Shown: positions 1 through 12,267 of the stretch, one piece after another
Numbering within the stretch: the first letter of the stretch is position 1
Layout of the letters: each line of letters begins with the position of its first letter
Source of the DNA: a candidate division WOR-3 bacterium
Lineage (GTDB): Bacteria; Hydrothermota; Tepidihabitantia; SM23-42; JAOAFX01
Assembly (NCBI GenBank): GCA_039802265.1
Contig: JBDRWI010000063.1
Span: 1-12,377 of the forward strand
DNA: 12,377 nucleotides
Reading direction: 5' to 3'
Position numbers and translations under genes: made by a program
The notes under the pieces: model-generated
Databases searched by the model: none
Told to the model about the DNA's origin: nothing
What the model saw: only the letters and a program-made list of their open reading frames with translations

Positions 1-1763
1 CGCGGACCCTGAACCTTAACCGTATCATAAATGTATATCCACTTGGAATCAGGCGCATACCATAACGAATCCTTCACAAAAACCGAATCAAAATAATCCT
101 TCACATAATTGTAATCAAACGAAGTCACCGCATAATAATAACCAAAACCATTACGCACATCCGTATCCACATAACTATGCACCAAACCCACATCCGTCGC
201 CGTAAGCGCAATTGAATCCGGAGCATTCGGATCCTTAAAGGTTATCCCATTAGATAAATCAAACGAGGCAAGCAGACTCCAGGTCCCAGTCTTGCCCGTC
301 GGACTCTTCCAGACCCGATAACCTTCAAAATCGTATTTCTTATAGTAGGGATCATAGTTCGGCGAAGAAGGATTGCTCACCACATCATAGTATGGGTCAG
401 GCGTAGTCTCCGAAGAATTGTCCCAGACCAGCGTAATCTTTGCATCACCCGGGACACAGGTCAATTTCGGCGGCGGTGGCGGACCAGGAAGTAACCAGTT
501 CATATCATAAATGTACTGGACGGTTTTATCAAGTTTTGCGAGTGCAGTATCAGGCCTTTCTACAATTCCCCTGGGCCAGTAAGTCAACATTATACCAACA
601 AGCACAATTGCCACTGAATCTGCCTCAAGGTCAAATGGTCCACTGCATTGTAAGAACCTCTGGTCATCAGGTTGAGGAGGCAAAGTATCATAAGGCGTAT
701 ATTCGCCAGTCTTGAAGTTATAACCGGCGAGTGTCACATATCTTTCATTATCTTTATTAGGCTCAAGGTTCAATGTGAATCTCTTGAATGCAGTCATCCC
801 CATCTGTGGAATCTCTGACGGGTCACGCCAATCCGGCGTTCCATCTGCATCTACATCCCATTGTGCTGGTGGAACATTCTGGGCATAATATGCACTATCT
901 CTTTCATACTGATCAGGAATCCCATCGTTGTCTTTATCCTGACCTTCTTTTAAATCCCAAGGGCTCTGCAGATAATCAAATCCGATTGCACCTACATCAT
1001 CCCAACCAGTTTCATCCGCAACCTGCCATTGATAACCAAGATTATCTACAATGAGTGTTTCACCAGCAACGACAAATGTATCACACACAATACCAGAGAT
1101 TATATCATTCGCATTCGTTCCGGATTCATTGCCGATATCATTATCGGTACAGACACCGAAATAACAATTACTCAATTTCTTGCCACTAATATTCTTCAGT
1201 TCGTATCGCACAAAGATTATATCCCTTGTTGTGCTGAGGTTCCAGGCATAGACTGTTTGATATACTTCCAGACCGATTGGTCTTGTATCACCGGGCATAT
1301 GATTATTTATATCAAGGTCATTATAGGCACACCAGGAATCCTGATGGGATTTTGGAACTTGCGGTGCCATAGGAAATATATCGGCTGGAGGTGGCCAGGG
1401 AGATGGATACATAAATATTATCGCATTAGGGTCTCCGGATGACATATCTTTCAATCCAGGCGTATATTCAGCCTCTCCACCGTGTGGACCATAACCAATG
1501 GTAACAAGTGTATCAGTGCCATCTATCGTGCCAAACCATGAACCGGCACCAAAGATATAAGTGTGTCCACTACCTTTGGGCCAGAATAAACCAGAATTAC
1601 CGGCCTTGGTTTGACCAAATTTACCATAATTGGAGATACACATCTCCACATTATTTATGTCATGCTTTTTTATTTCGAATGGACGGTATTGTGGTGCAGG
1701 GGTTGCAGTCCTGCAAAAACCTATTACCGCAATAAGCAGGGTTAATGCTAATATCCTTTTCAT
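1..1763 (-). CDS. Large secreted TBDR-associated protein with DxDxDG Ca-binding motifs and an FN3-like domain; 3'-truncated by the window edge (>=587 aa)
   Basis: Not in the ORF track; translated by hand. ATG at 1763 preceded by CAGGAGG and open with no stop to base 1. N-terminal signal peptide MKRILALTLLIAVIGFC, then HDINNVEMCISNYGKFG...FWPKGSGHTYIFGAG, PIGLEVYQTVYAW, DKDNDGIPD, DVDADGTPD, SGPFDL, and PPPPPKLTCVPGDAKITLVWD...YDFEGYRVWKS...HSYVDTDVRNGFGYYYAVTSFD (FN3-like). Starts 12 nt after the TBDR stop. Confidence 0.9.
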   Translation of the reverse strand, partial: MKRILALTLLIAVIGFCRTATPAPQYRPFEIKKHDINNVEMCISNYGKFGQTKAGNSGLFWPKGSGHTYIFGAGSWFGTIDGTDTLVTIGYGPHGGEAEYTPGLKDMSSGDPNAIIFMYPSPWPPPADIFPMAPQVPKSHQDSWCAYNDLDINNHMPGDTRPIGLEVYQTVYAWNLSTTRDIIFVRYELKNISGKKLSNCYFGVCTDNDIGNESGTNANDIISGIVCDTFVVAGETLIVDNLGYQWQVADETGWDDVGAIGFDYLQSPWDLKEGQDKDNDGIPDQYERDSAYYAQNVPPAQWDVDADGTPDWRDPSEIPQMGMTAFKRFTLNLEPNKDNERYVTLAGYNFKTGEYTPYDTLPPQPDDQRFLQCSGPFDLEADSVAIVLVGIMLTYWPRGIVERPDTALAKLDKTVQYIYDMNWLLPGPPPPPKLTCVPGDAKITLVWDNSSETTPDPYYDVVSNPSSPNYDPYYKKYDFEGYRVWKSPTGKTGTWSLLASFDLSNGITFKDPNAPDSIALTATDVGLVHSYVDTDVRNGFGYYYAVTSFDYNYVKDYFDSVFVKDSLWYAPDSKWIYIYDTVKVQGP

Positions 1764-1775
1764 CTTGGCCTCCTG

Positions 1776-4544
1776 TTAAAATCCTAAACTTACACCGAGT
1801 TGAACCCTGAATGGACCATTGTAATAAGTCGGGTCGCGATAGTAATCGTTGCGTGCTGCAATATATGCCTTCTTTTGCTCAGGCGGAGTAACTATTCCAT
1901 CGTGATTATAATCTGTCTGTGGCGAATAGCGGGTCGATGCAATAGTGATATAACCGAATTGTGTAATTGTTGGTTCTGGGTCACCATGATTATCAGGCTC
2001 ACCAGTCGTGGGATAAACATTATTCACTTGTTTTGTATTAAATAAGTTTCTTACCAAAGCGCTGATATTAAGTTTTACCGGTCCAATCTTTATCGGCCTG
2101 CTCGCATTCAGATCAACATTCCAGTATCCCGGCATTCTTGCCGAATTCTCATCACCAGTTTTATTACCCTTAAGGTCCTGTGGAGTATATGGCTGTCCTG
2201 AATGGAATGAGAATACAAGGGAAGAGCTGAAACCTTGCAATGGGATGAAAACGAAATCTTCGGGTAGAGAAAGGTCAAAATTTGCATTGACAATATTTCT
2301 TTCATCAAAGTCAAGCCAGTAATCAATCACCGGTGGCTGAAGTGGTAAGCCAGTGATCGGGTCATTTCCACCATAATAGAAATCATAATAGAATTCACCT
2401 GCATAAGAAGCAGTTCCCTTGGCAAATTGAAGGGTATAACTCAAACCCATTGCCCACATATTTGACATTGTCTTCTGGAGGCTTATTTCAAACCCTTTGA
2501 TATTTCCATAGTCAACATTAAAGAACTGGAAATAAGGCATTGGCAATGCAATCACCTGACGAATCTGGGAAAGGTCATAGACATCCTTGAAATAGGCAGT
2601 GAACCCCATTACAACATCCTGGGTAAACTGGTTCTCAATACCAACTTCATACTGGACTGTCTTCTGCGGTTTCAAAAATATATTTCCCACAATGGTATTT
2701 CCACGAGTGAGTGCAATCCTAATAACCGCGGTATCAGTCGTCCCGTACATATCATCAAGTGCTGGTAACTGGAAATAATGACCATAATTGAAACGGAATT
2801 TCATCCTTTCAGTTACCGGGAGTGAGAAACCGAGTCTCGGTGAAAACTTATAATTCTTTTCAGCCTCAACAAGTGTATCATTCCTTGGATTATTGGGCTC
2901 TTTATAAGTAACACTCTTGGGGTCAAAATAGTCAAATCTCAAACCAACCCTTGCGATGAGTCCTTCAAAATCCATTTTATCCTGGACATAAGCGGCTAAT
3001 TTATAAGGAGTCCGCTCATAATAATCCCAGAATGGGTTGGTAACCCAGGGGAGGTTGTTGTCGTAGTATTTTAGATTATACTGGATATAATCAATTCCGG
3101 TCTTAAATTCATGGATTTTGCCAACCGCATGGGAAATATCAAAACGTGCCTGGATATCGTCATTTTGCCAGTATCTCCATACACGATAATCCCCATAGGT
3201 ATAATACAGACCTTCAATGCCGTAGGGGTTATATCTCAATGCCTGAACATCGCGATTGGTATATTCGGTATGGTATTGCATTACACTATCAACTATCACA
3301 TCCTTTGGTGGTAATTGGTCTTTAGTAAGATACTCAATCACATGTTCTGCCTTCATACGATAATCATTGAACCATTTTTGATTATTCTCTTCTTCCCACT
3401 CATAATCCCTTGTTCCATAGACACGGTCATAATGTGTCAAGCCAGCTTTTAATGAGAGAAGTGTCTGGGCACTGAACATATAATTTAGCGTTGTTGAAAG
3501 AATGTAATTCTTCGTCCGGCTCATTGGTCTTCTCTGGAAATATTTCAAACTTCCAGAAGACCAGGTCACATACTGATCCCGAGAATTGAATCCGCTGAGA
3601 GTAACCTTTCCTTTATTGTTAGGCATTCCATAGGAAAATCTTGCCTGGGCACGATAGGTATTTCTCGGTGACGGAACTTTATACAACGCTTCCCTATAGG
3701 CATCGGTTAAAGTCAACTCACCTGATAAAAAGTATCTCAATCTTTGAACCGCAGGTACAGGTCCACCAAGTGATAAATCATAGAAGTTATAACCGAAATT
3801 CAATTTATCTTTAAGATTATCTACAAAGAAGACCTCATCAGTAAGATAGCGGAAACTGCCTGAAGGCTTTGTCCCACCTTCTTTCGTAACAATGTTGATA
3901 ACACCGCTGAGTGCATCTCCATATTCTGCATCAAAACCACCGCTGACAACCGTAACTTCTTCTACCGCTGAGGCGTTTATCTGGGTTGATTGGGCACCGG
4001 TATGAGGAACCCTTGTCTGTATACCATCAACATAATATGTGACTTCGTCAGTTCTACCGCCACGAATATGAGTTCCCAGATTGGATGTTGAAACACCAGC
4101 CTGCAGTGTAACCACCTGATTGATTGTAGTAACAGGTAAACGAGATATATCCTTGGAAGTAACTGAATGACCACTCTGGGTCTGTGAAACTACAATCGGT
4201 GGTCTTTCAGCAACAACCGTAACTTTTTCAACCTCAATAACCGTCGGTTTCAAACGGAAATTCAATGTCGTGGTCTGGTCAGCATTGACAATCACCTGAG
4301 CATATGTAAATGGGTCATAACCAAGATAAGATGCGGTAACGCTGTATGTTCCTGCTGGCACATACAGAATTACAAATTCACCCTTTTCATCAGTAGCAGC
4401 ACCAAGTTCTGTTCCTTCAACAATGACATCAGCACCGATCAATGCTTCGCCGGTCTCAGCGTCTCTTACCCTGCCGGTGATCTTGCCGTATTCGGCACCG
4501 AACAACAATGCACCGACAAGGATTAACGCCCAAAGTTTCTTCAT
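1776..4544 (-). CDS. TonB-dependent outer membrane receptor (N-terminal carboxypeptidase-regulatory-like domain, plug, beta-barrel)
   Basis: Signal peptide; GKITGRVRDAETGEALIGADVIVEGT...GAATDEKGEF (CarboxypepD_reg-like); plug motifs HIRGGR...YYVDG and VVSGGFDAEYGDALSGVINIVTKEG; barrel motifs GLRFDYF, SPRLG, LKPQKTVQYEVG, RNLFN; C-terminal Phe (VSLGF). RBS GGAGGTG. Confidence 0.95.
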   Translation of the reverse strand: MKKLWALILVGALLFGAEYGKITGRVRDAETGEALIGADVIVEGTELGAATDEKGEFVILYVPAGTYSVTASYLGYDPFTYAQVIVNADQTTTLNFRLKPTVIEVEKVTVVAERPPIVVSQTQSGHSVTSKDISRLPVTTINQVVTLQAGVSTSNLGTHIRGGRTDEVTYYVDGIQTRVPHTGAQSTQINASAVEEVTVVSGGFDAEYGDALSGVINIVTKEGGTKPSGSFRYLTDEVFFVDNLKDKLNFGYNFYDLSLGGPVPAVQRLRYFLSGELTLTDAYREALYKVPSPRNTYRAQARFSYGMPNNKGKVTLSGFNSRDQYVTWSSGSLKYFQRRPMSRTKNYILSTTLNYMFSAQTLLSLKAGLTHYDRVYGTRDYEWEEENNQKWFNDYRMKAEHVIEYLTKDQLPPKDVIVDSVMQYHTEYTNRDVQALRYNPYGIEGLYYTYGDYRVWRYWQNDDIQARFDISHAVGKIHEFKTGIDYIQYNLKYYDNNLPWVTNPFWDYYERTPYKLAAYVQDKMDFEGLIARVGLRFDYFDPKSVTYKEPNNPRNDTLVEAEKNYKFSPRLGFSLPVTERMKFRFNYGHYFQLPALDDMYGTTDTAVIRIALTRGNTIVGNIFLKPQKTVQYEVGIENQFTQDVVMGFTAYFKDVYDLSQIRQVIALPMPYFQFFNVDYGNIKGFEISLQKTMSNMWAMGLSYTLQFAKGTASYAGEFYYDFYYGGNDPITGLPLQPPVIDYWLDFDERNIVNANFDLSLPEDFVFIPLQGFSSSLVFSFHSGQPYTPQDLKGNKTGDENSARMPGYWNVDLNASRPIKIGPVKLNISALVRNLFNTKQVNNVYPTTGEPDNHGDPEPTITQFGYITIASTRYSPQTDYNHDGIVTPPEQKKAYIAARNDYYRDPTYYNGPFRVQLGVSLGF

Positions 4545-4555
4545 CGTACACCTCC

Positions 4556-5590
4556 TTACTTAACCCTTACGGGTATGAGCCAGAATCTTGCTAACAGTGG
4601 GCTGGCAGGTTTCACATAATAAAAACCATCGTTAACAATTACCTCAAAAATAAGATTCTTTACTCCGGAACCCGTAATTTGAATTTTTCCTGAACCGCTT
4701 GGAAGATGAACTTTCTTGCCATCCTGAACCGCAAAGAAACTGCAGAGATCACTTGTAATTGTGCCGCCGAGTACAATGGTTATTGTTAATGAATCTCCAT
4801 TATCATATTCCAAGAGTGAATCAATATGGCAAAAACGATTCATTGCATGATGTTGATAAATTGTATCAACATTAGACGCCCAGATTGTATCAATCCGTCC
4901 GGTATTCATAGAAGAAACTATTACCTGACTGATATAAGGAATGCTTGCACCACGATTGGGCAAACCATAATTACCATAGGATATTCTTTTTAACTTCCAT
5001 TCTCTCGGTTCTTTCACCTTCCAGACGGAATCGCCTAATTCTTCATTCCATACCTTCTCTTTTACTGGCTCAACGTATAGATGGCGCAATCCTTCAACAG
5101 TTATTGTATCGTAAGAATAATAACCACCACCAGTCTCAACTATTACTGTATCAAGTTTCTTAACTGTGTCACCCTGCCAGAAATAATAACCTTTGTATAA
5201 TAGGTCATAATGGACCTCCCGTATTACATTAAATGTATCATAAAGATACGCAGTACAGGTTGTATCTTTCGTGTACCAGAGGTCCTTAAAACGGGAACTT
5301 GAAGCAACATTATCACGTAGACTATCAACATGCTGCTTTACAATAACTGATTCACCTTTGAAATAAGAATCAGAGACTGGGAAAGAGACTGGATCAAGAG
5401 TAACAGGAATGTAAGTATTTACGAAAATATCGTCAGTCTTAAGGAACTCAGGATAACCATTAAGCAATGTGTTAATAAGTGAATCATCTTCGGGTGTCCC
5501 ATTGTAAAATTCCTCTGGTGGTTCATTTCCACAACTTATAAATATCAATCCAACGATTGCCAATAGGCTTAGCCAATTCAACCTTTTCAT
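4556..5590 (-). CDS. Putative lipoprotein of unknown function, beta-rich, first gene of the TBDR unit
   Basis: MKRLNWLSLLAIVGLIFISC|G has the n-region, h-region and lipobox-like FISC with Cys20. RBS AAAGGAGG. Ends 11 nt before the TBDR start. Confidence 0.85.
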   Translation of the reverse strand: MKRLNWLSLLAIVGLIFISCGNEPPEEFYNGTPEDDSLINTLLNGYPEFLKTDDIFVNTYIPVTLDPVSFPVSDSYFKGESVIVKQHVDSLRDNVASSSRFKDLWYTKDTTCTAYLYDTFNVIREVHYDLLYKGYYFWQGDTVKKLDTVIVETGGGYYSYDTITVEGLRHLYVEPVKEKVWNEELGDSVWKVKEPREWKLKRISYGNYGLPNRGASIPYISQVIVSSMNTGRIDTIWASNVDTIYQHHAMNRFCHIDSLLEYDNGDSLTITIVLGGTITSDLCSFFAVQDGKKVHLPSGSGKIQITGSGVKNLIFEVIVNDGFYYVKPASPLLARFWLIPVRVK

Positions 5591-5679: not shown

Positions 5680-5707
5680 ATTATATTCAGAATATTAAAA
5701 TTGTCAA
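5680..5707 (-). promoter_or_regulatory. Sigma70-type promoter for lipoprotein-TBDR-secreted protein unit
   Basis: Minus strand TTGACA (5707-5702), 16-nt spacer, TATAAT (5685-5680); both hexamers are exact consensus. Confidence 0.75.
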
Positions 5708-5709
5708 GC

Positions 5710-6318
5710 TTACTGCAATTTAAAATCAAACGGTATGTTAACTCTAACTCGCACAAACATATCCCTTTGTTTTGCCGGGGTAAATTTCGCCCTTCTTGCA
5801 GCAGCAATTGCTGCCTCATCAAGCATCGGATTACCACTTGATTTAAATATCTTTGCTTCCATCACACTGCCATCTGTATCTACAATCGCCTCAACAATCG
5901 CTTTTCCTTCAATTCCTGCCTTTCGCGCAAGTTCAGGATAATCAGGTTTTGGAATTGAAATTGGTTTGGGTTTCACTTCTACTTTTGCATAAGGAATGAC
6001 TTCTATCTCCGGACCTGTAGGTTGGGTTCTGATTATATCTTCCCTGAATTCGGTTGCAGCAATTGTTTCCACTGCCTCTTCGGCAACTTCTGTTGCCGCT
6101 GCAGCAACTGCGACCTTGGGTCTTTCCACCGGTGGTGGTTCTTCATATTTTTCTATCTCCGCAGAAATCTGCTCCACCATTGTTACAATTTCCTTCCTCA
6201 ATTTGTATGGTTCAACCTCTGCGTATGGAACAAAAAGAAATAATAGTATCAAAATGATTATCCCAAGCAACATTCCAGTCCGGAAATAAACCCCATACAT
6301 TAATTTATGGTCGCGCAT
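5710..6318 (-). CDS. tonB: Energy transducer TonB
   Basis: One N-terminal TM helix, Pro/Glu/Ala-rich linker (EEPPPVERPK), TonB C-terminal domain PDYPELARKAGIEGKAIVEAIVDTDGSV...SSGNPMLDEAAIAAARRAKFTPA. Start moved from the track's TTG at 6330 to ATG at 6318 because GGAGG lies just upstream of that ATG. Confidence 0.92.
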   Translation of the reverse strand: MRDHKLMYGVYFRTGMLLGIIILILLFLFVPYAEVEPYKLRKEIVTMVEQISAEIEKYEEPPPVERPKVAVAAAATEVAEEAVETIAATEFREDIIRTQPTGPEIEVIPYAKVEVKPKPISIPKPDYPELARKAGIEGKAIVEAIVDTDGSVMEAKIFKSSGNPMLDEAAIAAARRAKFTPAKQRDMFVRVRVNIPFDFKLQ

Positions 6319-6319
6319 T

Positions 6320-6736
6320 TTAACCTCCAAATTCCGTGGCGAATGTAATCTTAAATGCCCTTGCCTCTTTCAACTGATCAAGAACCACATCAACTGTCCC
6401 ATAATCAATATCTTCATGAATATTCAGAATAGTCACGAGTTCTGAATTTTCCGCTATCTTGGGTGCAATCCTCGTACTCACCCTTTCCTTGGGAACCAGG
6501 CTGTCATCAATGAATACCCGGCCATTATTATCAATAAAAATATGGGTAATATTCCTACGGATTAATATCCGCTCCGTTGATTTTGCCTTGGGTAGAGTAA
6601 GTTTTAAATTAAGGGTTGTAGCACGGAAGACTGTAGTAACCATAAAGAAGAGAATCAAAAGAAATGCAACATCAGCAGTTGAAGCAGTAGGAATCTCTGG
6701 GGTTCTTGTAAATCTTCTAATTATACTCTTACGCAT
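6320..6736 (-). CDS. exbD: Biopolymer transporter ExbD/TolR family protein
   Basis: EIPTASTADVAFLLILFFMVTTVF with the conserved TM Asp; LPKA; C-terminal YGTVDVVLDQLKEA. Confidence 0.92.
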   Translation of the reverse strand: MRKSIIRRFTRTPEIPTASTADVAFLLILFFMVTTVFRATTLNLKLTLPKAKSTERILIRRNITHIFIDNNGRVFIDDSLVPKERVSTRIAPKIAENSELVTILNIHEDIDYGTVDVVLDQLKEARAFKITFATEFGG

Positions 6737-7200
6737 TATTCCTCACTCGTTGGGATTAAACTAATTTTGTTTGCCCTCAATTCCCTGCCATCCTGAGTGA
6801 CAACCCGGCATAATTTTATCTGGTCAAGAACCGCAATCATTGCCTGATACCTTGCATCCTTGCTTGTCTTCAGTGAAACAACCAACAGTGTATCCCTTTC
6901 TAACAATTTCTCTTCCACAATTCTCCGCACTTCTGAATAATTTTGTGGTAAAATGTCTAAACCATCGTACCCCGAAGCCTTGAGTCTGAGTGCACCCTCA
7001 GGATTTATCAGAATTGAAACAACATTCTCAGGTTTTACCTTCGTCTCCTGCTGTGATTTTTCGGGAAGAAGCATCTTTATTCCCTTTTCTCTTGTAAAGA
7101 CTGTGGTAGTCATAAAGAATATAATTATCAAAAAGGCAATGTCACCCATTGAGGCAGTAGGAATATTGGGAATGATTTTTTTCTTCTGCCTTAACTCCAT
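6736..7200 (-). CDS. exbD: Biopolymer transporter ExbD/TolR family protein (second paralogue)
   Basis: NIPTASMGDIAFLIIIFFMTTTVF with the conserved TM Asp; DARYQAMIAVLDQIK; TAATG overlap with the next exbD. Confidence 0.92.
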   Translation of the reverse strand: MELRQKKKIIPNIPTASMGDIAFLIIIFFMTTTVFTREKGIKMLLPEKSQQETKVKPENVVSILINPEGALRLKASGYDGLDILPQNYSEVRRIVEEKLLERDTLLVVSLKTSKDARYQAMIAVLDQIKLCRVVTQDGRELRANKISLIPTSEE

Positions 7201-7824
7201 CTATTTTTTCCTTTTCTGATAATGCTCAAGTAAATAATCAATCAAACCTGCAGCAACTTCCTCCATATCTTTTGTATAGCCATCAACCTTGCCTGAGAAT
7301 AAAATATGGAGAATTGCCAGGGGTGTTGCTATCAAAAGACCCCATTTTGTCGTAATCAATGCCTCAGAGATACCACTGGCAACGATTGTCGGTTCAACTT
7401 CTCCCGCAGCAGCAATCGCTGCAAATGCACGGATCATTCCGGTGACCGTTCCCAAGAATCCCAAAAATGGTGCAACAGTTGTCAAACCGGCAAGGAGCGC
7501 CATTCCCCGGTCAAGGAATCCAAGTTCAACTGCTGCTGCCCGCGCCGCAACCTCTTCCATTGCATCCTTACCTTTATCTGCCTTTTCAAGAATTGCCTTT
7601 GCAATTTTTGCTGCAGGTGATGATGTCTGATCACATAAAGCAATTCCTGCATCAACACCCTGGGCATCAATGGTAGAAATGAGTTTTTCCATAAAACTCT
7701 TTGGATTTAATCTTATCTTAAACAACAAAGAAAATAACCTTTCAATAATAATCGCCAAACCCAGGATGATGCAGATCAACAAAAGCCACATCACGCTTCC
7801 ACCTATTGCAAATTCTTTAACCAT
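7201..7824 (-). CDS. exbB: MotA/TolQ/ExbB proton-channel family protein
   Basis: GGSVMWLL, IIIERL, APFLGFLGTVTGMIRAF, GISEALITT; directly upstream of two exbD genes and tonB; RBS AAAGGAGG. Confidence 0.93.
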   Translation of the reverse strand: MVKEFAIGGSVMWLLLICIILGLAIIIERLFSLLFKIRLNPKSFMEKLISTIDAQGVDAGIALCDQTSSPAAKIAKAILEKADKGKDAMEEVAARAAAVELGFLDRGMALLAGLTTVAPFLGFLGTVTGMIRAFAAIAAAGEVEPTIVASGISEALITTKWGLLIATPLAILHILFSGKVDGYTKDMEEVAAGLIDYLLEHYQKRKK

Positions 7825-7851: not shown

Positions 7852-7879
7852 ATTATAATGAAAATGTCACTAATGTCAA
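7852..7879 (-). promoter_or_regulatory. Sigma70-type promoter for exbB-exbD-exbD-tonB
   Basis: Minus strand TTGACA (7879-7874), 16-nt spacer, TATAAT (7857-7852); exact consensus hexamers. Confidence 0.78.
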
Positions 7880-7882
7880 GAG

Positions 7883-8233
7883 TCATTTAGAACTTGCCGA
7901 GTAATAAAGAACCCCACCAATTAGTGGGAAAAGACCCGCACCAAGGAAAAGGAAGCTCTCATATCTTGCGAGTCTAAGAGAACCGATGATTAAATCAAAC
8001 AAATCACCCGGTCCTGCAACACTTAAAAGTGGGAAATAGAAAATCATTCTGTAGATATGGAATCCTGCTACCGCAATCAGGAATATACTTCCGATTATCG
8101 GAAAAATCCATATCCCCTTACCGCCGATAAGAGTTAAAAGCCTTTTTAGAATAATCCCAAAAATTATCAATGAAACAATGGCAAGAAGAATTGCCACCAT
8201 AAAGATTATTTCTGCAATTATGTCAGGCCTCAT
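7883..8233 (-). CDS. Small 3-TM membrane protein, paralogue of 8255..8623
   Basis: Three hydrophobic stretches; RBS AGGAGG; motif GIILKRLLTLIGGKGIWIF matches its neighbour. Confidence 0.85.
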   Translation of the reverse strand: MRPDIIAEIIFMVAILLAIVSLIIFGIILKRLLTLIGGKGIWIFPIIGSIFLIAVAGFHIYRMIFYFPLLSVAGPGDLFDLIIGSLRLARYESFLFLGAGLFPLIGGVLYYSASSK

Positions 8234-8254
8234 AGAACCTCCTGATATTTTTCA

Positions 8255-8623
8255 TTACTTACCCTTGGTGACGCCGTAAAACCTTAAATTTGCCACAAGC
8301 GAGAGAATACCAGAAAGAAAAAACAGTCCATAAGCAAGGTAATTAACCCCACCTTTAGGCAACATCATTTTGCCGCCAATTCCGCAGAATATCAATTGGA
8401 TTAAAGCAAATATAAGAATGCCGGTAGGCGCAAAAACCATAAACTGCCAGTTTGTCTTTTCACCAAGAACTATTTCATACCTTCGGGCAATTATTCCTAA
8501 GAATATAAATGCGAGCCATAATAATAGTGCACCCAGCACGAGAATATAATTAGGGATTACTGCCAGGGATTGATAGGTAGATTTTTCAATCCCGAATGGT
8601 GCAGTAAATAAAACAAATTCCAT
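8255..8623 (-). CDS. Small 3-TM membrane protein, paralogue of 7883..8233
   Basis: Three hydrophobic stretches; RBS AGGAGG; motif GIIARRYEIVLGEKTNWQF. Confidence 0.85.
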   Translation of the reverse strand: MEFVLFTAPFGIEKSTYQSLAVIPNYILVLGALLLWLAFIFLGIIARRYEIVLGEKTNWQFMVFAPTGILIFALIQLIFCGIGGKMMLPKGGVNYLAYGLFFLSGILSLVANLRFYGVTKGK

Positions 8624-8631
8624 AAAACCTC

Positions 8632-9216
8632 CTATTTTAATTTTGCAAGTAATTTATTGGTTAAATCTTTTCCCTTTGTTGGTCCGATAATCATTCCTGC
8701 AGCCTTGCCCAGGGCGAAAATAAATCTTCTAATATCTTCTTCGTAGAGTTCTTCTGCTTTTATCCTCTGTGCCTTGAGTTGGTTTTGGAATACCCTATCA
8801 GCAAAATCACCGAGATAATCCTGAACGATTGATTTCAACTGGTCAAGAAATTCTGGTCCGAATTTTTCTTTTGGTTTTTCTTCCTCAACACCTTCAGCCT
8901 TTTTATGTGCTCTTATCTCTTTTATTGCATTGTAGATACTATCCAGCACATCTTTCTGGCTTGTAGCATAAATATGCCCTATAAGATCACCTTCTCCAAT
9001 ATCAAATAGTAGGCTCTGATTACTACCTACTATTTCTAAAGTATCAATCTTTATCCCACCCAATGCATTAATTGTTTCAAAGACTACGGTTGCGGTCTGG
9101 GAAAATTTTTGTTTTTGTTTCTCACCTGTCTTTGAAGTTGTTGTTTCCCCATCCTTTTGCGTAATAAAAGGTAACCCCAGACCACGGTCTTCTATTTTAT
9201 TTAATAATTCATCCAC
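8632..9216 (-). CDS. Cytoplasmic protein: divergent Roadblock/LC7-like N-domain plus helical C-domain
   Basis: GTG start with AGGAGG. N-terminal ~100 aa follow a roadblock-like pattern (FITQKDG; helix; LGGIKIDTLEIVG; LLFDI; LIGHIY; helix). Charged linker, then LKSIVQDYLGDFADRVF... helical domain. Domain call is by eye. Confidence 0.6.
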   Translation of the reverse strand: MDELLNKIEDRGLGLPFITQKDGETTTSKTGEKQKQKFSQTATVVFETINALGGIKIDTLEIVGSNQSLLFDIGEGDLIGHIYATSQKDVLDSIYNAIKEIRAHKKAEGVEEEKPKEKFGPEFLDQLKSIVQDYLGDFADRVFQNQLKAQRIKAEELYEEDIRRFIFALGKAAGMIIGPTKGKDLTNKLLAKLK

Positions 9217-9226
9217 CTCTTACCTC

Positions 9227-9982
9227 CTATGTTTGTTTCATCTTTTCAATAACCGCCTGTACCTTCACCCTTGCCTGCGAAGAACCCATTTCCTCCACGG
9301 CTTTTTTAACAAGAAAATCTATGAGAGTTCTTAGTATTTGTACAATGTCATCCTCTTTTTCAGAAGGCGGGGTCTGTTTGAATCCCATTTTATCCCCGAT
9401 AATTCCGACCATTGGAAGAATATCCGTGGCAAGAATGCCAAGCCCCTGATTGAGAATTTCAATCCAATGCGCTTTTTTCCCACCGCTTCCAAACTCTTCA
9501 ATTAAAAGATTGATTTGCATCAACTTTGAACTAATACTTCTCGGCAGTTGTGTCTCTACCTTCGGCGGAGGTGGAGGTGGTGGTTTTATTTCCTCAACCA
9601 CCTTCTCCTCAATTTTTTCCTCAATAATCTTTTCTGCGGGTTTTTCTTCTTTTATTTCTTCTTTTATTTCTTTTGGTGCAATGAGCTGCTCCTGCACCCG
9701 TTGAATAAATTCTTTAGGATCCTGCTCTCTTTCTACCTCTATCCCAATATACTTGCCGTTGTGCAGAAAGATAATCAACCGATTTGCCCCATAACACAAC
9801 GAAACAAAATTTATCTCTCCGAGATTGAGGGTATTCTTTATAACCTCTGCTGCCGAGGAGAAGAATGCCGTGAGATCACCGAGCGGTGAAGTAGATGAGC
9901 CCTTCACCTCTTCAATTGAGCCATCCTCGGCATTGACTACAGCATAGTTTATGATTCCGGCAATCTTATCCAGTACATCCAT
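9227..9982 (-). CDS. Roadblock/LC7 (MglB-like) domain protein with Glu/Lys/Pro linker and helical C-domain
   Basis: LDKIAGIINYAVVNAEDG...LTAFFSSAAEVIKNTLNLGEINFVSLCYGANRLIIF...YIGIEV fits the roadblock alpha-beta-beta-alpha-beta-beta-beta-alpha pattern; linker with PPPPPPP; RBS AAAGGAG. Confidence 0.7.
   Translation of the reverse strand: MDVLDKIAGIINYAVVNAEDGSIEEVKGSSTSPLGDLTAFFSSAAEVIKNTLNLGEINFVSLCYGANRLIIFLHNGKYIGIEVEREQDPKEFIQRVQEQLIAPKEIKEEIKEEKPAEKIIEEKIEEKVVEEIKPPPPPPPKVETQLPRSISSKLMQINLLIEEFGSGGKKAHWIEILNQGLGILATDILPMVGIIGDKMGFKQTPPSEKEDDIVQILRTLIDFLVKKAVEEMGSSQARVKVQAVIEKMKQT
9647..9670 (+). repeat. Perfect 12-bp tandem duplication inside the linker (encodes EIKE-EIKE)
   Basis: ttcttttatttc at 9647-9658 and again at 9659-9670; in frame. 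Confidence 0.85.
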
Positions 9983-9995
9983 TACCCGCTCCTTT

Positions 9996-10832
9996 CTATT
10001 TCAATTCTGTACTCAATTCTTCAATTTTTTTCTTGAATAACAACTTTCCATAGATCTGTGGACCTTCAGACCGGACGAATTCATCAAAACCTTTTCTGAA
10101 TTTATCAATCTGCTCTTGGGACAATGGATTTTGAACCGATATCTCAAAAGTTTCTTCATTCACATTTATTGAGGCACCGAGGATTTGATTTTCCGGATTT
10201 AACTCTGACCATCTTCTAAACCAGTTTAGACCATTTCTTCCAAAAACCCTGAAGAAGGCATTAAAATATTTTAACAATCCCGCCATCAATCTCTCTGCTT
10301 CTTTAGGGTCATAAATCAAACCCTGCTCTTTAAGCCAGACTATTGTCTTTATGGTCTCATAACCACCGAGTTTGGATTGTGCGATTATTTCATTTATTGT
10401 CCTTTTACCATCAACCATTGCCAGAACCTGCCAGTCGGTGCGGCGCAACGCAACGGCAGAAGGCAGTTCCTTTGTTGATTTTGCCAGAACTGCATCCCTC
10501 GGTGGCAATCGGTCTTTTATTGTTTCAAACTCAACCCGCCGTCGTTCAATATTTTCATTTAATTTGCCAACATCTTCGGAAATAGTCTGCTCTGTTGCCT
10601 TAACCCCCGATTCAAAAACACCTTTTTCAAGATGGACAAGAGAAAGGTTTAGCAATGAATCAAAACCCTTCTCTGTTCCATCTGTGGCATGAATAATATG
10701 CCCATCCCTTAAATATACTTCACCATTTAATTCACCATTTACCCTTACCACGCCGGTCTTTTTCAGTTGTACAAGAAATTGTAATACATCGGATAGATTG
10801 AACTCCTTTAAATTTATCTCAAGATCTGCCAT
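9996..10832 (-). CDS. DUF4388 (PATAN-like) domain protein with central winged-HTH-like region and helical C-domain
   Basis: NLKEFNLSDVLQFLVQLKKTGVVRV...GEVYLRDGHIIHA...G.F is the DUF4388 signature; DWQVLAMVDGKRTINEIIAQSKLGGYETIKTIVWLKEQGLI is the wHTH-like segment commonly following it. No receiver domain is seen. Confidence 0.88.
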   Translation of the reverse strand: MADLEINLKEFNLSDVLQFLVQLKKTGVVRVNGELNGEVYLRDGHIIHATDGTEKGFDSLLNLSLVHLEKGVFESGVKATEQTISEDVGKLNENIERRRVEFETIKDRLPPRDAVLAKSTKELPSAVALRRTDWQVLAMVDGKRTINEIIAQSKLGGYETIKTIVWLKEQGLIYDPKEAERLMAGLLKYFNAFFRVFGRNGLNWFRRWSELNPENQILGASINVNEETFEISVQNPLSQEQIDKFRKGFDEFVRSEGPQIYGKLLFKKKIEELSTELK

Positions 10833-11449
10833 TAAATCACTCCCAACCAGTTATGCAAAAGGAAATAAACCCTGCCAATAAATAAAGATACACGCGCCAT
10901 GATTGTATATCCAAAAGATGCGCCAAACGATATCATCATAAACCATATGCCGATCTTCGCACCAATGCCAAGTGCTCCTTTATGCTCTTTTGAAAAGTAG
11001 AAATAGGTAAGGGTAAAAATAACCCCGCCAATAATCAAAATGTTTGATATTACATTAAAAACAGGAATACCCTTTAGCGGCAGAAATGTCGCCTGTAATT
11101 GAGGAAAGATATCGCCCTGAACAATCTGAGTAATAGAAACCGCCATTGCAATACCCATAGTAAATGTCAGGGGGATACGTATCATCCATGAAATTTTTGG
11201 AATGAGTGGTGCAAACATCAAAAGTCCGATAAAAATTGGAAATATGTTATACCATTGCCCTTTTGTAAAAAAGGGCTCAAATAGATTGGGCCAGGCAAAA
11301 TCATACCAGAGCACAACCGCCCAATAACCAGCAGAGACACCAACAAATATATTTTCGGCAATTTTATAGAATGGATTATCTTTATAAAGAAACGAATAAA
11401 TCGCAAGTGTTAAGAGTGCAGCAATCCATATTCCAATTGCATTGATCAT
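10832..11449 (-). CDS. Conserved polytopic (~6 TM) membrane protein of unknown function
   Basis: Highly hydrophobic; motifs LTLAIYSFLYKDNPFYKIAENIFVGVSAGY and FMMISFGASFGYTIMARVSL; AGGAGG RBS; ATGA overlap upstream and TAATG overlap downstream. Confidence 0.88.
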   Translation of the reverse strand: MINAIGIWIAALLTLAIYSFLYKDNPFYKIAENIFVGVSAGYWAVVLWYDFAWPNLFEPFFTKGQWYNIFPIFIGLLMFAPLIPKISWMIRIPLTFTMGIAMAVSITQIVQGDIFPQLQATFLPLKGIPVFNVISNILIIGGVIFTLTYFYFSKEHKGALGIGAKIGIWFMMISFGASFGYTIMARVSLFIGRVYFLLHNWLGVI

Positions 11450-12267
11450 TTTTTCCTCCTCTGATATAACAGTATCACGTTGCCAAGCACAATAAAACCT
11501 ACAAGGAGCAGGTGTACAATTGATTGAGAATCCATACCCCTTAGTCCTCTTCCTTTTCTATCAACAAGTGTCTCATACTCGGCTGCACCTTTCAATCCAC
11601 CTAAAAGTCCGGTCAATTGTCCAGAGCTCAAATAAGGATATTGCTGTGGTGCCATAATTGCAGTGGTGGCACCGCAGATTGTTACGCCGTACCGCGCATG
11701 GAAATATAATATCCAGTGTAGTATACCCGGGTCACCAGCCGAAAATGTCATAACCATTGATAAATCCTTCGCTGATTTCACTCTCCTCCCCAACGGAAGT
11801 GAATCTATCGGAGTTCCCTGATAATCAACCTTTATCACATCAGAAAAATTCCTACCCAAACTCAATAGCATTACTGCTCCACCAGGACGATAGCCAACAT
11901 TGATATAATCTTCACCATATCTTTTGTTATAAGATTGTGCAATTTTATTTAACGCAATATTACCCAGTTCGCTACCCGCGGGCCAGAGACCCATCATATA
12001 TATTTTTAAATTTCTACGAAAACAATGCTCAATAAATGCCTCGGTCGCAGGGTATAATTCTGCCTCACTGCCCGGGTCATAATCAGTTGAGATAAGCACA
12101 ATTGAACCCGGAGGTAGAGATTCAACTTTATTATAAACATTCTTTACTGGCTTTGTAATATCCACCGGTAAATTTAAAGGCACAACCATTGGGATAATAA
12201 CTGCCAATGCAACGAGTAGAAATATGATTCGACGGTCAAGATGAGCGAGGTGGTCAAATATTTTCAT
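11446..12267 (-). CDS. Conserved membrane-anchored protein (N- and C-terminal TM helices flanking an extracytoplasmic alpha/beta domain), unknown function
   Basis: DRRIIFLLVALAVIIP (TM1), VLISTDYDPGSEAEL, YGEDYINVGYRPGG, YPYLSSGQLTGLLGGLKGAAEYE, MDSQSIVHLLLVGFIVLGN (TM2). Only a weak RBS (GGATGG). Confidence 0.88.
   Translation of the reverse strand: MKIFDHLAHLDRRIIFLLVALAVIIPMVVPLNLPVDITKPVKNVYNKVESLPPGSIVLISTDYDPGSEAELYPATEAFIEHCFRRNLKIYMMGLWPAGSELGNIALNKIAQSYNKRYGEDYINVGYRPGGAVMLLSLGRNFSDVIKVDYQGTPIDSLPLGRRVKSAKDLSMVMTFSAGDPGILHWILYFHARYGVTICGATTAIMAPQQYPYLSSGQLTGLLGGLKGAAEYETLVDRKGRGLRGMDSQSIVHLLLVGFIVLGNVILLYQRRKK

Follow-up and report, generated by a model that had tools for sequence, protein, structure and literature searches.

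Genes at the locus

The window analysed here is the whole of contig C63, a stretch of 12,377 nt from a binned genome (genome label G000) whose lineage, by the names of its protein matches, is candidate division WOR-3. It carries seven open reading frames (ORFs) on the minus strand, A to G (Table 1), and our subject is five of these, C to G, which encode a PATAN protein, two proteins with predicted Roadblock folds and a pair of small proteins with three transmembrane (3-TM) segments each. A first-pass annotation had described seven co-oriented genes joined by overlaps or by gaps of 8-21 nt, and the positions, overlaps and gaps were all found in the sequence: A and B overlap in ATGA (11446-11449), B and C in TAATG (10830-10834), and the gaps C-D, D-E, E-F and F-G measure 13, 10, 8 and 21 nt. 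Pfam and NCBIfam place C in a family above cut-off and return none for A, B, D, E, F or G, for which sequence searches of the PDB also gave nothing significant. P-loop, kinase and receiver families matched none of the seven proteins in these databases, in agreement with the annotation. The contig ends 110 nt upstream of A, so that the two genes usually preceding A are missing from the window.

Table 1. Features of the window and their coordinates (aa, amino acids; wHTH, winged helix-turn-helix; HD, helical domain).
Feature	Position	Strand	Remarks
C: DUF4388/PATAN, wHTH-like part and C-terminal helical region, 278 aa	9996..10832	-	core; PF14332 E 8e-11
D: Roadblock domain (1-101), low-complexity linker, helical domain, 251 aa	9227..9982	-	core; AlphaFold2 and Foldseek
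E: divergent Roadblock domain (1-110) and conserved HD (120-194), 194 aa	8632..9216	-	core
F: 3-TM protein of an unnamed family, 122 aa	8255..8623	-	core; N-terminus predicted outside; basic loop behind helix 1 conserved
G: 3-TM paralogue of F, 116 aa	7883..8233	-	core; His59 and Tyr110 invariant
A: 273-aa protein, gene 3 of a four-gene DUF6754 membrane cassette	11446..12267	-	neighbour, outside core
B: 205-aa polytopic membrane protein, gene 4 of the DUF6754 cassette	10832..11449	-	neighbour, outside core
exbB-exbD-exbD-tonB	5710..7824	-	Pfam; usually follows the core in WOR-3; probably transcribed separately
sigma70-type promoter match between G and exbB	7852..7879	-	perfect, 12/12
second sigma70-type match, between tonB and the 344-aa gene	5680-5707	-	perfect; at least 11/12 in 16/18 related junctions

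The membership of C in the PATAN/DUF4388 family, proposed in the first-pass annotation, is borne out by a score of 42.5 bits against PF14332, whose cut-off is 25; the wHTH part of that proposal gave a weak match in C (E 0.1, below cut-off) and a stronger one in a Chloroflexia homologue. D and E had been read as Roadblock proteins, and AlphaFold2 models searched with Foldseek confirm that the N-terminal domains of both are predicted to adopt the Roadblock alpha/beta fold, so that the annotation passes the fold check it had set for itself. The top match of the D model is a Ragulator chain (E 1e-5), with an Asgard Roadblock protein at E 5e-5, and the structure closest to the model of E (predicted local distance difference test, pLDDT, 88.6) is Myxococcus xanthus MglB (Foldseek E 3.6e-5; VIA Z 14.1, rmsd 2.2, 111 residues aligned). 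At the sequence level D, E and the members of their alignments gave no match to PF03259 (Robl_LC7), because they are too divergent for that model. Aligned with each other along their length, D and E show a weak similarity (E 3.6e-4), and a narrower pair of alignments gave nothing. The helical domain of E has an Atlas lead to DUF8082 (PF26309) at 0.87, which we take as a lead only.

F and G each show three hydrophobic segments, and hhalign identifies them as paralogues (probability 91.7%, E 7.8e-7, a score that membrane composition may inflate), as the annotation had said. In G, His59 and Tyr110 are conserved in 55 of 55 rows, as are loop residues in F. A profile search of 1.84 billion representatives returned 50 relatives of F. 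A Lamin-tail domain (LTD, PF00932) occurs in 14 of the 18 longer relatives scanned, 12 of them above cut-off, and one is named Herpetosiphon; other names among the 20 of 50 that were looked up are Theionarchaea, Altiarchaeota, Methanosarcinales and Anaerolineae. The Altiarchaeota protein appears to join an F domain to a G-like half in which the His is aligned (E 3.3e-4). The basic loops after helix 1, and the fusion of the LTD behind a hydrophobic leader, suggest that the N-termini of F and G lie outside.

Boundaries of the unit

We compared 55 WOR-3 loci selected by a match to C or F; a few of the misses reflect contig ends, masked bases or a frameshift. F is present in all 55, F and G adjoin in 54, and C-D-E-F is contiguous in 46; the gene order is conserved in other genomes and is not due to chance. 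The seven-gene composition of the first-pass annotation did not survive this comparison. A and B occupy the third and fourth places in an uncharacterised four-gene membrane cassette whose first gene, in relatives, belongs to DUF6754 (PF20539); the four-gene order is seen in a paralogous copy on contig C34 of the binned genome and in relatives. B and C adjoin in 20 of the 55 loci, and none of the 35 Chloroflexia and four archaeal-type loci examined has the cassette. The unit is the five genes C to G, from which the cassette is separable and of which it is a frequent neighbour. The membrane pair that the annotation had made of A and B stands in part: a hydropathy scan gives two segments for A, as stated, and four rather than about six for B at the threshold used.

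We therefore judge it very unlikely that all seven genes, or nine if the two cassette genes beyond the contig end are counted, make up a single membrane machine. Such a machine would fit the 20 loci in which B and C overlap or adjoin (the two lie no more than 900 nt apart in 26 of 55), the different cassette paralogues that occupy the same place in some genomes, and the lack of a promoter match of at least 11/12 at any of 20 B-C junctions. However, by the same 900-nt measure the cassette is absent from 29 of the 55 WOR-3 loci, a few of them at contig ends, and it is absent throughout the Chloroflexia and archaeal-type loci; moreover, the binned genome has three further paralogues each of A and B, making four A/B copies, and two of the three others are without C-G. 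In one WOR-3 family (L054, L056, L057, L069, L091 and L092) tandem duplicates of the cassette precede the module.

Relatives outside WOR-3 and a shared helical domain

Judging from sequence, F and G have relatives outside WOR-3, in Chloroflexia and in archaea, a distribution that is new. In Chloroflexia, the order mglB-mglA-PATAN-F was found in 35 of 35 loci read; G is next in 34, and the contig ends in the remaining one. These loci comprise 13 from a locus scan, all mglB-mglA-PATAN-LTD::F, with G next in 12 and frameshifts in mglA and F in one, and 22 fetched in addition (2 + 20), all with the same order and G, one of them with a partial mglA frame. An extra Roadblock-like ORF was seen by inspection upstream of mglB in 15 of the last 20 loci, and Pfam confirmed two such ORFs. 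F occurs in 38 of 251 genomes of the class Chloroflexia (G744 among them was counted only) and in 3 of 401 genomes sampled across the phylum Chloroflexota, so it is not general in that phylum. Locus L176 (4818-6719) joins PATAN-HD and LTD-F in one 633-aa frame, which is interrupted by a stop in its close sister L177; the joined frame may stem from recent read-through or from an error. The archaeal-type loci are four metagenome loci encoding proteins 73-82% identical to the Theionarchaea protein; three have the order Roadblock-F-G, and the fourth begins at F.

What links the three lineages, besides F and G, is the 75-residue HD that ends the gene before F in each of them: E in WOR-3, the PATAN gene in Chloroflexia and the Roadblock gene in the archaeal-type loci. 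A profile built from WOR-3 sequences only picks out the PATAN C-terminus in 13 of 13 Chloroflexia cases and the archaeal-type protein in 3 of 3, and no other of 1051 ORFs; in the reverse direction the HD profile recovers E in the window (E 2.5e-4). The structure prediction for a complex of F, G and HD, for which our own alignments were used, scored 0.41 (runs 0.48, 0.41 and 0.36), and the best of three controls, one of them with G replaced, scored 0.00. Contacts agree between runs by at least 92%, and partner pLDDT is at least 75. In the benchmark for this score, 116 of 157 solved pairs and 2 of 215 mismatched pairs reached the mark, and 18 solved pairs and both mismatches had scores of at most 0.60. 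The prediction lends weak support to the idea that HD of E binds F/G.

The module and MglA in WOR-3 genomes

About 105 of 271 WOR-3 genomes carry the module, usually ahead of exbB-exbD-exbD-tonB. F has a strong match in 106 and D in 108 of the 271 genomes, and both are present in 105 of the 109 that have either; weak matches, one for F (G016) and three for D (including G260, G261 and G061), were dropped, and the joint count was made by hand. The D-like matches in G260 and G261 (L150, L151) belong to another GTPase-less arrangement, composed of a Roadblock-helical protein, a binding-protein-like gene, a HAMP-like membrane protein and a PATAN-Roadblock fusion. In 10 of the 105 genomes, from three families, D and F lie on different contigs; where both loci were read (4 genomes), or the F locus (3 more), C-D-E stay together and F-G stay together.

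The first-pass annotation had found no GTPase in the locus and had suggested that one might be encoded elsewhere. The former holds for all 55 WOR-3 loci, and in none of the 55 does mglA lie within four genes of the Roadblock gene, a distance at which it is found in 35 of 35 homologous Chloroflexia loci. As for the latter, the binned genome carries mglB-mglA on contig C35 and a second mglA on C14, found by reading neighbouring genes, and the Chloroflexia relatives carry the pair in the same operon; a PF03029 GTPase was not found in the binned genome. Of the two copies, that on C35 gives the slightly higher score with the MglAs of the Chloroflexia operons, in 31 of 31 comparisons and by a small margin. 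MglA is present in 166 of the 271 WOR-3 genomes, including 102 of the 108 with D, so the co-occurrence that the annotation had asked about is there. It is not specific: 64 of the 163 genomes without a strong D match have MglA too. An MglA paralogue specific to module genomes is ruled out by tree and synteny, which show that module-negative genomes keep the orthologous mglB-mglA pair. Within WOR-3 alone, a link of the module to a GTPase is allowed.

Two further observations concern MglA and Roadblock genes in these genomes. Locus L131 (G133) has four tandem mglA copies behind one mglB. A cluster of Roadblock and DUF4388-TPR genes lies at G000:C3:6261-13273 and C17:20979-26693, with genes that, from the appearance of their sequences, we take to be DnaA-like, TPR and Che-like; in several relatives (L139, L142, L143 and L146) a second mglA heads this cluster.

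What the module may act on

The relatives of C-G that share an operon with mglA in Chloroflexia make it likely that C-G is a kinase-free membrane input for the MglA switch. We lean towards the reading that, in WOR-3, the module is a membrane-anchored input for a small MglA-type GTPase encoded elsewhere in the genome. Several observations weigh against it. MglA is found in none of the 55 WOR-3 loci and, within the stretches read, in none of the four archaeal-type loci, and 64 of the 163 genomes without a strong D match have MglA as described. The Chloroflexia loci are without genes of the D/E type and have ordinary MglB-type Roadblocks instead, so the WOR-3 module may have diverged in function. 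The loci within each lineage are related and not independent. The G half of the Altiarchaeota fusion is weak (E 3.3e-4, probability 38%), and the score for F, G and HD falls in a range in which a pass is wrong more often than not unless the pairing is likely beforehand. Finally, in split WOR-3 loci F-G mostly stay with exbB and not with C-D-E (8 of 9), and genome G143, 92% complete, has F-G beside exbB and neither D nor HD.

These last two observations suit a different explanation, namely that F/G serve the ExbB-ExbD-TonB motor as accessory subunits in WOR-3, with C-D-E as a cytoplasmic control layer and no role for MglA. G lies directly before exbB in 47 of 55 WOR-3 loci, G034 has a duplicated F-G-exbB copy, and in G061 the motor genes are preceded by a PATAN gene and a remnant of D. 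We nevertheless consider this explanation improbable, because F and G are not confined to genomes with a TonB motor: in five of five Chloroflexia genomes with the F/G operon, their completeness not being given, neither TonB_C nor ExbD was found, and F/G are also present in archaeal records. C-D-E-F-G occurs without adjoining exbB in two WOR-3 families, and in G223 all three blocks are apart. In addition, the junction between G and exbB has a near-consensus sigma70-type promoter match (at least 11/12) in 30 of 46 cases, and such matches are absent from the four internal junction types (0 of 43 E-F, 0 of 50 D-E and 0 of 49 F-G, besides the B-C junctions given above). The TonB motor thus likely has its own promoter; a transcription terminator of note was not found after G. 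A role of F/G at the motor would in any case be compatible with an MglA input module, as its WOR-3 output. The G061 locus itself (L149:5378-8968), in which the PATAN gene and the broken Roadblock (D) remnant lie directly ahead of exbB-exbD-exbD-tonB and F/G are absent, is a decaying copy.

The conserved promoter adjoining the module also bears on a third possibility: F/G may be a membrane sensor and C-D-E a relay that works independently of a GTPase, with the winged helix of C as output, for example through DNA binding at the exbB promoter. Homologues of C have Pfam matches of the wHTH type, neither MglA nor PATAN is nearby in the archaeal-type loci, and a transcriptional output has been proposed for Group 3 MglA systems with a wHTH partner (PMC4316618). 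However, the wHTH matches are below cut-off, mglA is present in every Chloroflexia locus read, and no operator was found, although no search was aimed at one; we regard a relay of this kind as rather less probable still than a motor accessory.

Neighbouring genes and origin of the contig

Downstream of G, Pfam identifies exbB, two exbD genes, tonB and a TonB-dependent receptor, the last preceded by a 344-aa gene without a family. In the far part of the window (3-5590) the receptor lies between the 344-aa gene and a large exported protein that is truncated by the contig end; the counterpart of this string on C34 extends to a gene that is presumably PorV-like.

The eleven complete genes of the window that were compared (twelve counting the receptor; rows in a wrong frame left aside) are 83-99% identical to those of G007, a genome from a different genus, and flanking orthologues of the window genome and G007 share 32-67% identity. 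Contig C34 of the same binned genome carries a second full copy, 43-88% identical to that in the window, and at the terminus of C63 an identical match to C34:3001-3117 spans 117 nt. The two contigs cannot be told apart by tetranucleotide distance. Mis-binning or a recent transfer may account for the window contig. Since G007 has its own MglA, the interpretation of C-G as an input to MglA is independent of where the contig came from.

Comparison with known systems and implications

PATAN genes near mglA/mglB, orphan Roadblock proteins and the kinase-based conservon have been described, and when that account was written the orphan Roadblock proteins had no role established by experiment (PMC4316618). 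Among open-licence papers we found none on the present gene composition, and none of the general MglA papers found deals with WOR-3. From the sequence comparisons, C-G would be a variant of MglA/Roadblock/PATAN signalling in which the unnamed membrane pair and the putative docking domain are newly seen.

The MglA/MglB system of M. xanthus (Group 1) resembles the module in its Roadblock fold, which is nearest to MglB, in having PATAN beside Roadblock genes, in the mglB-mglA pair that the Chloroflexia version includes, and in that partners can sit far from mglA (PMC4316618). The module differs in adding the 3-TM pair and the shared HD, in lacking a receiver domain and, in WOR-3, in having two divergent Roadblock-helical paralogues that miss the Robl_LC7 model and no GTPase in the locus. 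Like the actinobacterial conservon CvnABCD (Group 2 MglA), it combines a membrane component, a Roadblock protein and an accessory protein with a small GTPase and no response regulator (PMC4316618). Unlike the conservon, the module has no histidine kinase (no family above cut-off), HAMP or LPxR motif protein, there is no CvnD-type GTPase in the WOR-3 operon, and the membrane part consists of two 3-TM proteins, one of them fused to an LTD in Chloroflexia. In the eukaryotic Ragulator-Rag system a Roadblock platform at the membrane serves a small GTPase, and by analogy the two kinds of Roadblock in the module are predicted to be tethered to the membrane as such a platform; the likeness is one of fold only (12-16% identity), the anchor would be integral 3-TM proteins and the GTPase of the MglA type. 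Ton(Oar) of M. xanthus likewise has ExbB/ExbD/TonB genes with a TonB-dependent transporter adjoining, a likeness that covers only the downstream neighbours of the module (PMC6434023).

If C-G is an input module for MglA, then F and G would pair as a six-helix heterodimer in the cytoplasmic membrane, and the HD at the end of E may dock on F/G, as is weakly predicted. Signals at the outer face would be sensed through the LTD in Chloroflexia or through His59 of G. A tethered D/E Roadblock pair and the PATAN protein C would then act on MglA, either placing or regulating it, as suggested by the MglB-MglA pair and by the Chloroflexia operon. The output in WOR-3 is a guess, for which the neighbouring TonB and TonB-dependent receptor machinery of the envelope is the most obvious candidate. 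A bolder extension, which we hold to be on the doubtful side, is that F/G are a new family of small heterodimeric, six-helix, kinase-free receptors in bacteria and archaea, in which an outer ligand, at the LTD or the His59 site, alters the grip on HD, the carrier of the Roadblock or PATAN proteins, and so switches or positions a Ras-like GTPase at the membrane; the logic of receptor-Ragulator-GTPase signalling would then have a prokaryotic counterpart, rewired in WOR-3 to a TonB machine.

The inputs that recruit or signal to prokaryotic MglA/Roadblock switches outside myxobacteria and Streptomyces are largely open. The present finding puts forward F/G as a candidate membrane input and HD as a candidate docking domain, and Chloroflexia supply the operon in a complete version. 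Because Chloroflexia is a class with cultured members, the idea that F/G and HD form an input to MglA is testable there.

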